45,553 nucleotides of DNA, taken from positions 1 through 45,553 of the forward strand of contig JANOYI010000002.1 of NCBI GenBank assembly GCA_031428795.1, read 5' to 3'. Both the position numbers and the translations under genes were made by a program. This stretch comes from Ilumatobacteraceae bacterium (GTDB taxonomy: Bacteria > Actinomycetota > Acidimicrobiia > Acidimicrobiales > Ilumatobacteraceae). Numbering within the stretch: the stretch's first letter is position 1; each line of letters begins with the position of its first letter. This document shows, piece by piece, positions 7,946 to 30,592 of the stretch. The notes below the pieces were generated by a model that ran no database searches, had not been told where the DNA came from, and was given only the letters and a program-made list of their open reading frames with translations.

Positions 7946-10900
7946 TCAGCCGGACGCTCGTCGAATTCGATCAATCGCATGAGGTGGCCATCGACGCCGC
8001 AGACCGCTCGGCGCCGGTAGGCCCCGCCGCGACGGCATCTCGTCGAAGTAGGCGAGTGCGGCGGCGAGGTCGTCCTCGGCAAACAGGTTGACCGTACGGA
8101 GTTTGCCGTCGGCGCTGCCGTAGACGCCGATGAAGGCGAGCCCGATCCAGTAGTCGCCAGCACCGCCCAGCGTCCACATCGAGCCGGCGAGGACGCACGC
8201 ATCCTCGTTCGCGGCGTGGATGACGCTGTACACGGGTGCGCCCCGCAGCGTCTCGTCCTCGTCGCGGACGTGGAACAAGGCGAGACCGTCCTCGCGGTCC
8301 ATCGTGCCGTAGCCCAGCGGGCGGTGGTCGACCATCGTGAAGTCATCGTGCGTCAGGCGTGTCTGGCCGACGACGTCGCTGTTGCGATGCGCGTCCAGCC
8401 ACTGCCGGATCGACTCCGGCACGACATCGGCCGCAGAGGTCTCCAGGGCGGTTTGTTCGAAGGTGTTCGTCGCGGCGTGCAGGTCGCACTGTTCGAAGAG
8501 GGTGACCCGGACGATCCGGTCGTGTTCGTCGATTTGCTCGACCGACCAGTGTGAGTTCTCGATCCGGGTGAGCGCGAGGCGGTCGCCACGCACGGCGATG
8601 GTCTCGCGCTGCGTCACCCCGTACCCGAGCGTCGCAGGGTCGACGGTGCCGCTGCGCAGGTCGCCGAGGGTGACGGTCGTGCCGTCGATCAACGTGGCCG
8701 TGAAGTCGTCGGCGAGCAGACAAAGGACGTCGCCCGGTTCGCCGCATCGGGCCAGGGTGTTGGCGAGGCCGCCGGCGACCACTGCGTTGTTCACCATCGG
8801 GTCGGCGATGGTCTCGGCCGCCCACCGGCCGGCCAGCGCACGAGCGAGGTGCTCCTGATCGTGTTGAAAGTGGTCCATCTGAGCGATCAATCCGCTCGCT
8901 GGCAGCAATCGCTTGACGGTGACGAAGCGATCCACCAAGTCACCGCCGTGGCGATCGGTGAACTGGAGTCGGGAGTCGAGGAGCACCCCGGTCGGGCCTG
9001 CGAGCTCCACCCGTTTGTTGGTGAAGAGCGCCTCGCCGTCGTACCCGGTGATCGTTGCGAGACCGGCAGCGACGCCGGCTCGGTCCAACTCGCCCCAGCT
9101 GATCGCTCGATGCGTCGTCGACACGACGTAGGGCGCCAGAGTGCTCAGCGCCCTGGCGAGATCGCGGTCGTTCGCGGCGTCGAAATAGGTCAATGTCGCT
9201 TGCAACTGGGCGGCGTCGAGCGGCGACAGGTCCTCTATGTACCACGCGTCCAGCTGGTCGAACGCGGCGCGCAGGGCGGTGAGGTCGTACACGGCGGCCT
9301 CGGTCAGCAGGCCCTCGGTACTCCAGCGGGTGAGCAGGAGGAACTCGAACTCGAAGTCTTGATCTCGGTAGATCCACACGTGTCGCTGCAGCACCAACGA
9401 GTCGCCTCGGACCCCCATTGTTTCGGCGCTCATCGAGACCGGCTGGTCGGTGTAGGCGTGGCTGACCTCGGAGCGGCCCCTGTACGACCCGCCGGTGAGC
9501 GAGCGATGGCTCACCCAGACGACGTCGTCGTCGAGGCACGCTGCCCATTCGTCGAAACGGTCGGCTGATCGGAGATCGATCGCTCGCCGCATCCAGCGAT
9601 CGGCGTCGTTCCAGGGCTCGTCGTCCGGGGTCGGCAGGGCCTCGCTGAGCGCCGGGGCGCTGCCGTCGAGTTCGTGGAAGCGGGCCGTGGCGGCGTCGAG
9701 ATCGTCCTCCGGGAACAGTTCGAAGCTCGTGAGGAGACCGTCTCGCAGCCCGAGCACGGAGAGATTGACCACGCTCTCCCAGAGGTGGCCGGAGGTCGAG
9801 TCCGTGATGGCGGCGACCTTCCAGACCTGGGCTCGTGCGCTGCTGGCGGATACGCATTGAACGACCATTACGTCGAGGGCGTCGGGACCCCACGCGAACG
9901 TCGCCAGGAACCCGTCACGGTCGGATGCCGGGAATCCCAGTGGGCGGTGGTCCTCGACGCGGAACTCGTCGGCTAGGAGCGCTCGCATTGCCGCTTCCTC
10001 CCGGTTCCGCATGGCCCGGTTGGCGCGGAGGACGGTAGCGCTCACGTCGTCGACGTCGAGCTCCTCCCAGCGATCCTCGATGGCGTTCGCGGCCTTGGCG
10101 ATGCTTGCGAACTGACGCACACGTTGCAGGTGGCCGGTGTCGTCGACTTCTTCGACGGACCAGTGACCGGTGCCGTCGTCGAATCCGACGTACAGCATTG
10201 CCAACCGGTCTGTGAGCACAGACATGATTCGTCGGTCGACGACTCCGTAGCCGAGCGCTCTCGGTTCGACCGTGCCCGTGCGGAGGTCGTCGAGGGTGAC
10301 GGTGGTGCTGTCGGTCAGGGTGGCGGTGAAGTCGTCTGCGAACAAGGCGAGGAACTCGTCGAGTGAGGCGGTCCGCGCCCGGGCGTTCGCCACGCCACCC
10401 GTCCGCACGGCGGTGTTCGGCGCAGGGATCACGGCGTCGATCTCCGCCCGAGCGACATCGAAGCAGGCGAACGCCTCGTCGAATTCACCATCGGCGAACT
10501 GGTCAATCCGAATGGTCAGGCCGGTCGCTGGCTCCCAACTCGCAACGATCAAATGGTCATTGACGAGCTGCCCGGCTCCGGCTGTCGTGGCGATCAGACG
10601 GTTGCTGTGGCACCGCTGGGTCGATGACCGACGCCACTCGCGTTGCATCAGCAGGATCTGCGAGTCGGAATTTTCGGTCAACGTTCGCATCCGCTCACGG
10701 AAATCATCGAACCGCGAGTCGTGGCCCCAACCGATCAGGTGGTGGTCGGCCACCACCAAGCTGGGGTGGCAAAACCGCATGATCTGATCGAGGTCTCCGA
10801 CTCGGATCGCTTTCATGAATCGTAGGTTGAAGGCCTCCTCGGCCCCGTCGCTCGGGTCGAGCGTGTCGAGATACAGCCGATCCAGCTCGGCGATCGCCGC

Positions 10901-30100: not shown

Positions 30101-30592
30101 GCAGGCGATCTCGCCGCCGCGTCCGCGCGATTGACAAGCGCCCGCGAAGCCGGTCTAGATCGTATGCAGCACCGGATGGGCTGGTCGTTCGCGTTGGCCA
30201 TGTGGGCCGAGGTCGCGGCCGCTGTCGACGACGTCGAAGCTGCCGTCGAGCTGCTCCCGCAACTCGAGCCCTACGCGGGGTGCCTTGCCGATAGCCGGGG
30301 CACGGTGTGGTGCACCATCGACTTCGCGCGCAGCCGTCTTGCGTGCTGCCTCGGCGAGTTCGAGGAGGCCGAGGCGTTGGCTGACGGCGCGGTTGTCGCC
30401 AGCCGCACTCGAAACACTCCACTCTTCCTGGGCCGTGAGCTCGTCGCGCTGGCCGACGCACGCGCCCGGCTCGGGGTGCCGGCGGTCGAGCTCGAACCAC
30501 TCATCGACGAAGCCAGAGCCATTGCCGATCGCGCCGGCGCGTCGATCATTCGCTCAGACCTCAGTCGCTTTGCATTGCCAGATAAGGCCTAA
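27158..30592 (+). CDS. degenerate class III cyclase / internal LuxR-type HTH / STAND P-loop NTPase / TPR-like protein (paralog 3)
   Basis: Starts at the ATG at 27158, downstream of the previous gene's stop, with AATAAT 6 nt upstream. The cyclase-like motifs are [21 protein letters not shown] and [10 protein letters not shown]. The HTH is [41 protein letters not shown] (nt 27761-27919). Walker A is GEAGIGKS and Walker B is [10 protein letters not shown]. A helical repeat runs to the C-terminus. Confidence 0.85.
   Translation: [1144 protein letters not shown]

Follow-up and report, generated by a model that had tools for sequence, protein, structure and literature searches.

The closest described relatives of the proteins analysed here, compared by description, are Rv0386, Rv1358 and Rv2488c ('mclx') of Mycobacterium tuberculosis, which likewise run from an N-terminal class III cyclase through an AAA_16 NTPase to TPR-like repeats, occur as several paralogs per genome, and end in a LuxR helix-turn-helix (HTH). 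Rv0386 is an active adenylyl cyclase, and proteins of its type are treated as cyclase/LuxR regulators (PMC4452763; bioRxiv 10.1101/2024.03.06.583649); among the mycobacterial homologs, its cyclase activity is all that has been demonstrated so far. In regulators of the MalT/LAL and AfsR type, too, an AAA_16 STAND NTPase is combined with a sensor made of TPRs, and the output is an HTH. On the antiviral side, Avs (AVAST) proteins join an N-terminal effector to a STAND NTPase and a C-terminal TPR-like sensor, while Pycsar and Pucsar employ class III-type cNMP cyclases that are short, produce cCMP or cUMP (cGMP in Pucsar), and lie beside a cNMP-binding TM/TIR effector. 'Immune' cyclases are described as fast-evolving, and some cyclase–STAND fusions, those with NACHT or AP-ATPase rather than AAA_16 modules, are predicted to be immune (bioRxiv 10.64898/2026.08.12.744502).

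We analysed a 45,553-nt stretch of DNA (the window) from an uncultured freshwater-sediment actinobacterium, whose placement is Ilumatobacteraceae-like within the Acidimicrobiia, unlike the Mycobacterium of the Rv0386 group. ORF calling in the window gives three long ORFs, 7946–14635 (minus), 18151–21453 (plus) and 27035/27155–30592 (plus), hereafter P1, P2 and P3, and in all three Pfam finds Guanylate_cyc, AAA_16 (a MalT-type STAND P-loop domain) and helical repeats, bearing out the common cyclase–STAND–repeat core of the original prediction. Its accessory modules were also recovered—a zinc ribbon and NTF2-like array in P1, none in P2 by domain scan, an internal LuxR HTH in P3—and the active-site residues it had claimed match our motif reading and alignment.

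7946–14635, minus: P1, 2,229 aa (Pfam, alignments, AF2)
14483–14614 (aa 8–51), minus: P1 double zinc ribbon (Pfam)
13889–14410, minus: P1 canonical class III cyclase (Pfam)
13301–13828, minus: P1 AAA_16 STAND NTPase (Pfam)
~11366–12568, minus: P1 helical/TPR region
8021–11278, minus: P1 array of eight NTF2-like domains in two ~545-aa super-repeats
18151–21453, plus: P2, 1,100 aa (Pfam, alignments, structure model)
18166–18621, plus: P2 class III cyclase with Asn→Val
18736–19263, plus: P2 AAA_16 STAND NTPase
to 21450, plus: P2 winged-helix/arm region, then an all-helical TPR-like solenoid (19912–21450)
27155–30592, plus: P3, 1,145 aa from the Met at 27155 (Pfam, NCBIfam, alignments)
27179–27652, plus: P3 degenerate class III cyclase-like domain (match below Pfam threshold)
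27761–27916 (aa 243–294), plus: P3 GerE/LuxR HTH, between cyclase and NTPase (Pfam)
27995–28522, plus: P3 AAA_16 STAND NTPase
~29132–30589, plus: P3 MalT-like TPR region

Unlike the mycobacterial proteins, P1 and P2 have no HTH, that of P3 is internal, and P1 adds its zinc ribbon and eight NTF2-like domains; MalT/LAL proteins have a C-terminal HTH and no cyclase, whereas P3 carries a degenerate cyclase-like domain ahead of its HTH. The cyclase–AAA_16–TPR part of each protein matches NCBIfam TIGR03903, 'TOMM system kinase/cyclase fusion protein', over 430–670 residues (E = 5.5e-68, 4.9e-54 and 2.2e-31), at 109–230 bits against a family cut-off of 706; unlike that family, P1–P3 lack an N-terminal Ser/Thr kinase, and genes for TOMM biosynthesis are absent from their vicinity. 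No sequence-level PDB match was found for the STAND part. By Foldseek, the best PDB match to the P2 model (pLDDT 88.9) is, over NTPase, arm and TPR, the PH0952-type STAND-TPR protein 6mfv (E = 2.5e-13; 13% identity; TM-score 0.30/0.44), which is archaeal, has no cyclase head and is of unknown function; the mycobacterial cyclases Rv1900c and Ma1120 follow.

These comparisons lead us to the explanation that we consider probable: P1, P2 and P3 are separate, anciently diverged members of a large actinobacterial superfamily of class III cyclase/MalT-type (AAA_16) STAND/TPR signalling proteins, and neither a three-gene system nor a recent duplication. The three are 29–31% identical in pairs, and a neighbour-joining tree separates them into three deeply branching clades; each has orthologs of its own within the Acidimicrobiia (36–72% identity for P1; 45–76%, with more than 6,900 matches, for P2; 38–54% for P3). 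Because of that low identity and the closer orthologs that each has elsewhere, the term 'paralogous' holds at the superfamily level and no further; a phylogeny had been proposed to date the duplications, and judged by this tree the genes are not recent duplicates but products of ancient divergence. A second family member lies within 10 kb at one of nine independent homolog loci, and on one further 9.3-kb contig, and in none of these do the three subfamilies occur together; the trio is therefore unusual but not a conserved set. Three family members in 23 kb is more than this small locus sample would predict, an observation that counts against an explanation by ordinary signalling.

The three heads differ in their active sites. 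P1 has the canonical motifs FCDLVGST, KFIGDG, RVGINTG and D..G..LNTAAR, with the metal Asp, the Lys, the Arg and the Asp..Asn..Arg residues retained, position by position, by no fewer than 111 of the 120 subfamily sequences. The P2 site reads DWFGTPVVEASR, with Val for Asn, as an alignment with 3mr7 and Ma1120 confirms. Since DWFGxPV[VI]EA[SA]R is practically unvarying in the best 120 relatives of this ~1,100-aa subfamily, the substitution is, on the alignment, a family trait and not decay; mean identity within the P2 family is highest of all modules in the cyclase (68%) versus 40–43% in the TPR region. In P3 the motifs are LTEVVGS (Asp→Glu), DGEY (Asp→Glu) and NRAAS (Arg→Ser); its orthologs retain Asp/Asn/Arg, and the substitutions are, in the sequences compared, private to the window lineage. 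The P3 NTPase clade is interleaved with its closest non-cyclase relatives, HTH-STAND (N-terminal LuxR–AAA_16–TPR) and SARP-STAND regulators.

The C-terminal part of P1 gives SnoaL/NTF2 matches, and in an AF2 model of residues 1110–1665 (pLDDT 90.6) four NTF2-like cones resemble SnoaL, ketosteroid isomerase and Lsd19 folds; this four-domain unit is duplicated, its copies 26–50% identical, making about eight domains. NTF2/SnoaL cones are small-molecule-binding folds. Members of the P1 subfamily range from 1,305 to 3,801 aa, the sensor array varying strongly in length between relatives.

Around the three genes, the original prediction had described toxin–antitoxin modules and gene wreckage in a region opening at a tRNA gene. 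Our annotation of these surroundings reads:

5007–5092, plus: tRNA-Leu(TAA) (ARAGORN)
5161–5436, plus: ECF sigma factor C-terminal (region 4) fragment, truncated gene (NCBIfam)
5439–6923: ORF that has a single TM helix and matches no family (translation)
5668–16872, no strand: strain-variable segment, ~11.2 kb (read mapping, metagenome contigs)
7005–7385, minus: VapC-like PIN toxin (Pfam PIN, E = 3.8e-4, near threshold)
7385 to ~7700, minus: RHH antitoxin, upstream of VapC (Pfam RHH_1, E = 6.8e-4, near threshold)
7826–7883, minus: inverted 58-nt tRNA-Leu fragment, 91% (repeat search)
14853–15137, plus: antibiotic-biosynthesis-monooxygenase-like (ABM) gene, divergent from P1 (Pfam ABM, E = 1.6e-6)
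15301–15996, plus: alpha/beta-hydrolase (Pfam Abhydrolase_6, E = 1e-21)
16019–16845, both strands: overlapping ORFs with no family match
16876–17196, minus: MazF/PemK toxin (Pfam, E = 6.7e-16)
17193–17405, minus: CcdA-like antitoxin of MazF (Pfam, E = 3.3e-6)
17479–18072, minus: DUF4262 protein (Pfam, E = 1.2e-18)
21806–22087, plus: DUF411 protein
22841–24112, minus: FAD-dependent monooxygenase
24136–24903, plus: UbiE-type methyltransferase
24900–25658, plus: gene with no assigned family
26153–27113, plus: PD40 beta-propeller protein

The tRNA, DUF4262, MazEF between the paralogs and, at near-threshold scores, VapBC beside P1 were all found as described. A 'frameshifted NTase module', presumably at 16019–16845, was not; the ORFs there are without a match in Pfam, NCBIfam and PADLOC. 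As for wreckage, the ECF-sigma fragment (SigE-family match, E = 5e-7, covering only profile positions 119–157 of 162) and the tRNA fragment are the only pieces documented. The genes in between seem for the most part whole and of metabolic type (ABM, alpha/beta-hydrolase, DUF411, FAD monooxygenase, UbiE methyltransferase and PD40 propeller).

The segment 5668–16872, which holds the ECF-sigma fragment, the TM protein, VapBC, the tRNA fragment, P1, ABM, the hydrolase and the ORFs of no known family, is present in the window strain, where reads of metagenome runs X1, X4 and X5 map to it; runs X1–X8 contain 0.91–0.99 of the query words from 4.8–8.2 kb. In ~96–98%-identical relatives (runs X9–X12) it is missing or replaced: read depth at ≥94% identity is at most 8 versus 30–45 for X9, and ~0 versus 5–9 for X10–X12, and an X9 contig extends 624 nt beyond 16873 into dissimilar DNA. 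Metagenome contigs of ~97%-identical relatives retain 16.9–42 kb, with MazEF, P2 and P3. In the closest MAGs (L003–L005) the tRNA-Leu is the last common feature, synteny being broken beyond it (tblastn, tblastx). The 58-nt fragment corresponds to tRNA-Leu from its anticodon loop through the 3' end (two matches in the sequence search, none expected). It is situated 60 nt past the stop codon of P1 and resembles an att remnant; runs X4 and X5 have 12 nt in place of 7758–7920 (joint 7757→7921). P2 and P3 are conserved backbone, and P1 is carried by the strain-variable ~11 kb beside tRNA-Leu. The suspected variability thus exists at 5.7–16.9 kb (P1, VapBC) but not at 16.9–42 kb (MazEF, P2, P3), and the island idea is therefore valid for P1 only.

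A strain-variable setting with toxin–antitoxin genes and att-like sequence and a variable sensor array, both traits of P1, are also typical of conflict genes, and the original prediction had entertained Avs- or Pycsar-like surveillance, as pure conjecture and beside a second reading as plain regulators. In such a scheme Avs-like receptors would sense a phage component, and the cyclase heads would respond, like PycC of Pycsar, with a cyclic-nucleotide alarm to be read by an effector encoded elsewhere. We regard this as unlikely. The layout—enzymatic head, STAND NTPase, C-terminal repeats—would suit it, the segment of P1 adjoins a tRNA and holds VapBC and the att-like fragment, and PADLOC's PycC models match the P1 cyclase domain (E = 4e-18); yet at 63.7 bits they do no better than the generic class III model of Pfam (61.1 bits), and PADLOC returned no Avs, NACHT/bNACHT or other full-length match for P1–P3 and no defence model among ten neighbouring proteins. 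Pfam scans of window ORFs gave no effector of the cNMP-binding or TIR/TM kind, the Lys/Asp pair points to ATP rather than CTP or UTP as the substrate, and the outputs are a cyclase or HTH, unlike the nuclease, protease, Sir2 or TIR of Avs. Nine ortholog neighbourhoods are metabolic and mutually unrelated, the genes standing alone with no common partner and no defence-island context, and two P2 orthologs share one stable chromosomal position in a housekeeping context. An immune clade of cyclase–STAND NTPase fusions is indeed predicted, but 'immune clade 1' is NACHT/AP-ATPase and fast-evolving, whereas the window genes are AAA_16 and the slow P2 cyclase is the reverse (bioRxiv 10.64898/2026.08.12.744502). 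The MalT/AAA_16-type NTPase, the bona fide regulator architectures within the P3 clade and the backbone position of P2 and P3 in close relatives likewise argue against an antiviral function. A defence role is not supported for any of the three, though P1 may have one, and the evidence favours the alternative that these are plain regulatory proteins.

It is highly improbable that P1–P3 act as one module, for instance as heteromeric cyclase dimers whose degenerate sites complement each other in the manner of C1 and C2 of mammalian adenylyl cyclases. Class III cyclases do require a dimer for their active sites, P2 and P3 are degenerate at different positions, and tandem members occur elsewhere (two P1-type genes at locus L048; two or three overlapping P2-type genes on a JGI contig). 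But pairing P2 with P3 would give a first site of (Asp,Asp)+(Lys/Arg,Glu,Asn,Ser) and a second of (Glu,Asp)+(Lys,Asp,Val,Arg), so that both are defective and neither complemented; orthologs of each protein are also found with the other two absent within 10 kb, the window genes lie on different strands with unrelated genes in between, and relatives keep P2 and P3 without P1. Just as doubtful is the idea that P2 and P3 are pseudo-enzymes nearing loss in the junkyard of a degraded island, for which their catalytic substitutions and the nearby sigma-factor and tRNA fragments might speak, since all three ORFs are uninterrupted over 1,100–2,229 codons with Walker A and B kept, the P2 substitution is fixed in its subfamily and its cyclase strongly constrained, P2 and P3 are ~97% identical in relatives with few small indels and no apparent frameshift, and lineage-specific loss of catalytic residues is limited to the P3 cyclase-like domain.

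Domain content, residues, family structure, gene contexts and strain variability are shown by the results above; for the signalling superfamily that we favour, we infer activation, ligands and products by taking as models MalT, AfsR and other STAND switches, together with the class III cyclase active site, which is obligately dimeric. The C-terminal repeats would keep the NTPase as an ADP-bound, auto-inhibited monomer; binding of a ligand or partner, in P1 probably a small hydrophobic molecule in the NTF2-like cones, would allow ADP/ATP exchange and oligomerisation, bringing the N-terminal output domains together. P1 would then act as a fully canonical adenylyl cyclase whose Lys/Asp substrate pair makes cAMP the most likely product. 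The signal would be received by cNMP-binding proteins, Crp-type or other, encoded at other places in the genome; at locus L048 a P1-type gene is immediately preceded by a cNMP_binding-P450 gene, and at L046 a Crp-type regulator is 8 kb away. P2, its transition-state Asn lost subfamily-wide, is probably either a cyclase with low turnover or an altered mechanism, or else a dimerisation module that binds nucleotide, and P3 would bind DNA through its LuxR HTH, the cyclase-like domain of the window copy being probably catalytically dead. P1–P3 thus look like ordinary Rv0386/MalT-like cAMP/transcription signalling proteins rather than an antiviral system, members of a very large family of ATP-driven sensors with an adenylyl-cyclase-like head.

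Translation of the window's open reading frames and Pfam searches bore out the original prediction of three genes, here P1, P2 and P3, that share a class III cyclase, a P-loop STAND NTPase and helical repeats, the cyclase match of P3 lying under threshold. All three reading frames are intact:

7946-14635, minus strand: P1, intact ORF of 2229 aa
18151-21453, plus strand: P2, intact ORF of 1100 aa
27035 or 27155 to 30592, plus strand: P3, intact ORF

Each protein matches AAA_16, the MalT-type P-loop family, with Walker A and B intact; taking as diagnostic of STAND proteins a Walker A GxxGxGK[ST], a Walker B hhhhDD and an AAA_16 match followed by a helical arm/WH region and repeats, we assign all three to this class. 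The accessory modules also agree with those predicted, zinc ribbons and an NTF2-like array in P1 (Pfam matches, super-repeats and an AlphaFold2 model) and an internal LuxR HTH in P3, and the active-site residues called for each paralog match the translations. Sequence searches of the PDB for solved STAND relatives (phmmer and a 62-sequence profile) returned cyclase domains only. Over the cyclase-NTPase-arm core the three are 29-31% identical to one another, and a neighbour-joining tree of the NTPase modules, the phylogeny that had been proposed for these genes, places them in three deep clades, each with its own orthologs, the P3 clade being intermixed with HTH-STAND and SARP-STAND proteins. 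Recent tandem duplication is rejected by this identity and this tree; the paralogy is ancient, each gene belonging to a distinct, conserved subfamily of its own.

P1 combines a double zinc ribbon, a Guanylate_cyc domain (E 1.4e-16; 61.1 bits against a PF00211 cut-off of 21.9), AAA_16 (E 3.4e-21; Walker A/B GSPGVGKT/VIDD), a TPR region and SnoaL/DUF4440 matches. Its translation keeps all six class III catalytic residues (two metal Asp, substrate Lys and Asp, transition-state Asn and Arg), and the Lys/Asp pair predicts ATP, not a pyrimidine, as substrate. Two super-repeats, residues 1120-1660 and 1670-2205, are 26-50% identical and carry repeated SnoaL_2 matches; an AlphaFold2 model of residues 1110-1665 (pLDDT 90.6, pTM 0.87) shows four alpha+beta cones, whose fold matches are the tandem NTF2-fold enzymes Lsd19 and MonBI/II, SnoaL-like cyclases, ketosteroid isomerase and limonene epoxide hydrolase. 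The same architecture (zinc ribbon, cyclase, AAA_16, TPR, SnoaL/NTF2) characterizes a family whose lengths form a continuum from 1305 to 3801 aa and whose arrays hold from 4 to more than 16 NTF2-like cones, eight in P1 itself. Catalytic positions are nearly always retained across that family: metal Asp in 117 of 120 members, Lys..Gly-Asp in 119, Arg in 111 and Asp..Asn..Arg in 114. The G+C content of P1 (0.65-0.71) is little above that of its surroundings (~0.65), and a literature search found no paper describing NTF2-array cyclase-STAND proteins.

In P2, Guanylate_cyc (E 2e-13; 50.7 bits against the cut-off of 21.9) and AAA_16 (E 8e-29; Walker A/B GEPGIGKT/VLDD) are accompanied by a long helical region. 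Its translation reads DWFGTPVVEASR in place of the canonical D..G..VN.A.R, and HMMER alignments to 3mr7 and Ma1120 put its Val on the Asn position. Orthologs are full-length, ~1100 aa and 45-76% identical, among more than 6900 matches at E<=1e-10. Across the best 120 relatives, wherever a simple pattern could detect it, the motif DWFGxPV[VI]EA[SA]R occurs together with FTDLVGST and KxIGD[AS]; PV[VI]EA[SA]R (window 18490-18525, P2 aa 114-125) thus replaces canonical V-N-x-A-x-R subfamily-wide, with the remaining catalytic residues kept. Because the motif runs through these 120 relatives, the change of Asn to Val or Ile is fixed in the subfamily and is not a sign of decay in this genome's copy; we know of no description of such a subfamily. 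The cyclase is also the most conserved module of the P2 family, with mean identities in a 62-sequence alignment of 68% for the cyclase, 64% for the NTPase and 40-43% for the TPR halves. The best fold match of the P2 AlphaFold2 model (pLDDT 88.9) is the STAND-TPR protein 6mfv, followed by the class III cyclases Rv1900c, Ma1120, CyaB and CyaC with head-domain TM-scores of up to 0.94; the model thus confirms a class III fold for the head (TM-score 0.93 to Rv1900c and Ma1120).

Two P2 orthologs from different MAGs occupy a stable position, flanked by an MFS transporter gene and a GH2 beta-galactosidase gene. The two loci (L042 and L051) share the order OYE-SDR-MarR-ECH-RidA-AMP-ligase, then, further along, MFS transporter, P2 ortholog, GH2 beta-galactosidase, N6_N4 methyltransferase and DUF6886, an extra ParE/Phd pair being inserted in one of them. 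At a further P2 ortholog locus (L044), a 1568-aa BTAD-nSTAND1-WD40 protein of a different STAND family is encoded at 3263-7969, 2 kb from the ortholog.

The cyclase match of P3 falls short of the PF00211 cut-off (17.8 against 21.9 bits; E 2.6e-3), and the protein further matches a GerE/LuxR HTH (E 1e-14), AAA_16 (E 2e-25) and MalT-like TPR. The HTH is internal (aa 243-294), between cyclase and NTPase; Walker A is intact and Walker B reads VLED. Catalytic changes comprise first metal Asp to Glu, substrate Asp to Glu and Arg to Ser. The cyclase-LuxR-AAA_16-TPR architecture is recurrent in a subfamily of ~1145 aa and 38-54% identity, whose members retain LTDVVGST, RGEGDS and DGDYxGxxVNRxARLR, and the four substitutions of the window's P3 (D to E, G to D, D to E, R to S) are lineage-specific. 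After these orthologs, the nearest relatives are ~950-aa proteins that start straight with the LuxR HTH, and one SARP-STAND protein. We also considered complementation of active sites in a P2:P3 heterodimer, rejected because the residue patterns leave both composite sites defective.

We then asked how far the proximity of the three genes is conserved. A second family member occurs within 10-kb flanks at one of nine independent homolog loci (L048), and a 9347-bp contig of JGI 3300056388 has two or three genes of P2 type whose stop and start codons overlap. In the first of these, the P1-type gene at 7817-16273 is followed, 1 kb further downstream, by another of that type (2992 aa); in the second, a 4-nt overlap joins genes of 1103 and 1101 aa, the latter of which in turn overlaps the start of a third by 4 nt, an operon-like tandem array adjoined by a BTAD gene. 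About 175 kb of Acidimicrobiia DNA around modC held one AAA_16 relative. Family pairs therefore do recur, and no trio of different subfamilies was seen together in the other loci examined. Orthologs of each paralog are found without the other two, and P1 is missing from relatives that retain P2 and P3, so the grouping is not a conserved unit; our conclusion is that the three came to lie close together by an accident of genome arrangement specific to this lineage, the family having many copies per genome.

The absence of P1 from relatives reflects a strain-variable segment beginning near a tRNA gene. The left flank of the window reads, in order:

1168-3856: modABC
PadR-like gene
DinB/MDMPI gene
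5007-5092: tRNA-Leu(TAA)

This order from modABC to the tRNA is conserved in three MAGs (ModC 88-90% identical; scan of genome contigs with ModC), ModC being 84-90% identical to proteins of uncultured Ilumatobacteraceae/Acidimicrobiales MAGs more widely, which places the host in the Acidimicrobiia and not in Mycobacterium. Past the tRNA, gene content differs between the three MAGs and the window and among the MAGs themselves, which shows a synteny break at the tRNA that MAGs at 88-90% ModC identity are too distant to date. Closer strains came from metagenomes. The window DNA (61-71% G+C) is also present on an ENA metagenome contig and recurs near word-for-word in eight runs (X1-X8), mostly labelled freshwater sediment or sediment; contigs from X1, X4 and X5 are colinear and essentially identical over 3-23 kb, as is X1 over 22-42 kb. 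Four further runs (X9-X12) hold ~96-98%-identical relatives that span 3.0-5.7 kb and, unrearranged, 16.87-23 kb; X9, the sole one of the four compared over 22-42 kb, is covered to 42 kb, through MazEF, DUF4262, P2, the intervening genes, P3 and the right flank. Across 5.7-16.9 kb, depth at >=94% identity is at most 8 against 30-45 elsewhere in X9, and ~0 against 5-9 in X10-X12, apart from a peak where P1 is conserved (its cyclase/P-loop region), which paralogs from other organisms account for. An X9 contig departs from the window exactly at the mazF stop (16873) and runs on for 624 nt into unlike DNA. From this contig coverage, an ~11-kb segment with the sigma fragment, VapBC, P1, ABM and hydrolase genes is therefore strain-variable and P2 and P3 belong to the backbone: of the 5.1-30.6 kb whose variability among relatives was to be checked, 5.7-16.9 kb, with P1 and VapBC, does vary, and P2 and P3 do not. 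The X9 relative also has 749 nt instead of 57 nt at window 18001-18059, between DUF4262 and the P2 start, an indel in the region upstream of P2.

Some traits of a tRNA-associated island are present at 5.7-16.9 kb: it adjoins a tRNA gene, it is missing from ~97% relatives, and the 3' end of the tRNA recurs in it, although as an inverted and not a direct repeat. The repeat is a 58-nt inverted copy (91%), at 7826-7883 on the minus strand, of the 3' part of tRNA-Leu(TAA) from anticodon loop to end (5039-5096, plus strand), and it falls within the variable segment, 60 nt past the stop codon of P1; in X4 and X5 the 163 bp around it (7758-7920) are swapped for 12 nt, GCGGACAAGGCC. The fragment resembles the remains of an att site, left by an old integration and rearranged since, its orientation being 'wrong'. 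The window holds no second direct copy of the tRNA 3' end, as at a classical island border, and no integrase domain was found in the window ORFs scanned.

Among the other genes, Pfam matches verified VapBC (VapC/RHH), MazEF (MazF with a CcdA-like antitoxin) and DUF4262, all of which had been proposed. The 'frameshifted NTase module' proposed alongside them found no match in searches of 16.0-16.85 kb and 5.1-7.0 kb with Pfam (to E 5), NCBIfam or PADLOC. The suggested gene wreckage amounts to the C-terminal fragment of an ECF sigma factor at 5161-5436 and the tRNA fragment; most other intervening genes are ordinary, intact and metabolic-looking (ABM, alpha/beta-hydrolase, DUF411, FAD monooxygenase, UbiE methyltransferase, PD40 propeller). 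The sigma remnant (plus strand, region 4 only) is followed by an ORF of ~490 aa at 5439-6923 (plus strand) with one TM helix and no family match, and 5161-6923, just past the tRNA, may be a decayed sigma/anti-sigma pair. Elsewhere, a 755-aa ORF at 32780-35047 (minus strand), with a very high GC3 of 0.86, a weak TAT-signal match and no Pfam family, sits between two GFO/IDH/MocA oxidoreductases and a LacI regulator.

The architecture had raised the possibility of Avs- or Pycsar-like surveillance, for which PADLOC, the effector scan of the window and ortholog neighbourhoods give no support. PADLOC-DB yielded no Avs match at E<=0.01 and no NACHT or other full-length match for the three paralogs; its matches were PycC models over the cyclase domain of P1 only (top score 63.7 bits, close to that of the generic Pfam model), a weak PycC match for P2 and, for P3, CARF-HTH noise and no PycC match. 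Ten neighbouring proteins had no PADLOC match, and Pfam scans of window ORFs detected no cNMP-binding, TIR or similar effector domain. The right flank encodes sugar and redox metabolism and regulators. In nine independent ortholog neighbourhoods no partner gene is conserved, and the genes stand alone in mostly metabolic and transport surroundings; neighbours of conflict type turn up sporadically (a ParE/Phd pair, one N6_N4 methyltransferase, one BTAD-nSTAND1-WD40 gene), and defence-island enrichment was not seen in this small sample, judged by gene content. Cyclic-nucleotide links near orthologs are physiological in flavour: in L048 a cNMP_binding-cytochrome P450 fusion (6090-7757), possibly a cAMP-regulated oxygenase, directly precedes the P1-type gene (7817-16273) on its upstream side, and in L046 the closest P1 ortholog on a long contig has a Crp-type regulator 8 kb away.

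In a 2026 preprint, certain cyclases with a fused STAND NTPase are predicted to form an 'immune clade', the immune fusions having NACHT and AP-ATPase domains, rapid evolution and effector associations (bioRxiv 10.64898/2026.08.12.744502). P2 shows none of these traits, its cyclase evolving more slowly than the rest of the protein. The scans above also set the window genes apart from Avs and Pycsar, in that they gave no match to an Avs model, no defence-island enrichment and no adjacent effector with a cNMP-binding domain fused to TM or TIR. A defence reading is thus not supported for P2 and P3, and for P1, an accessory gene with a highly expandable sensor array, its probability is low. In one further reading, P1-type proteins would be an undescribed class of accessory, horizontally mobile STAND receptors whose cones sense foreign or competitor hydrophobic metabolites or invader components and raise a cAMP alarm; we think this quite unlikely, and if true it would make the P1-type system one of chemical surveillance or conflict, not housekeeping signalling.

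The other reading offered in the original prediction, plain regulatory or signalling proteins, is favoured by domain, context and family evidence, with a mechanism drawn from better-known relatives. Among described proteins, the nearest are the mclx cyclase/LuxR proteins of mycobacteria (Rv0386, Rv1358, Rv2488c) and the MalT/LAL and AfsR regulators, with which the window genes share a core and from which they differ in output and accessory modules. Rv0386-type mclx proteins join cyclase, ATPase, TPR and a C-terminal LuxR HTH in one polypeptide, whereas P1 and P2 lack the HTH and that of P3 is internal; the architecture is related, and the window genes are relatives of the mclx and MalT/LAL/AfsR proteins, not strict members. 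The best full-length NCBIfam relative of all three is TIGR03903, a kinase/cyclase fusion of TOMM clusters, at 229.9, 183.7 and 108.6 bits for P1, P2 and P3, far under its cut-off of 705.75; the match begins at profile position 262 or later, and the kinase part is absent from the window proteins. All three architectures already have many unnamed database members, and the novelty is modest.

By analogy with MalT, AfsR and Apaf-1-like STAND switches, the C-terminal repeats would keep the NTPase closed until ligand binding led to nucleotide exchange and oligomerisation; class III cyclase active sites form only at a dimer interface, and the induced proximity would switch on the N-terminal output. 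For P1 that output is, from its residues, most likely cAMP synthesis, and its eight cones are probable ligand sensors, the NTF2-like fold typically binding small hydrophobic molecules. P1-type genes have P450, Rieske oxygenase, luciferase-like and ABM monooxygenase and hydrolase genes as neighbours, a fit to the sensing of such compounds that is only suggestive. The conserved loss of the Asn in P2, where all other catalytic residues are strictly retained, suggests a cyclase that is slow or altered, or else a dimerisation module that binds nucleotide. The output of P3 would be DNA binding through its LuxR HTH, its cyclase-like domain being probably inactive.

What emerges is a correct description of three ordinary, poorly studied signalling genes, and it does away with a tempting false positive: a protein that joins an enzymatic head to a STAND NTPase and repeats is not, on that ground alone, of the Avs defence type, and the cyclase-headed AAA_16/MalT branch acts here like ordinary signalling genes. 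In the P1 subfamily, of specialist interest, a canonical adenylyl cyclase is linked with arrays of NTF2-like ligand-binding cones that can expand; the P2 type, with its transition-state Asn fixed as Val or Ile, poses the biochemical question of an altered mechanism or a pseudo-enzyme; and the P3 type exemplifies a cyclase-like domain grafted onto an HTH-STAND regulator, with catalytic residues then lost in one lineage.
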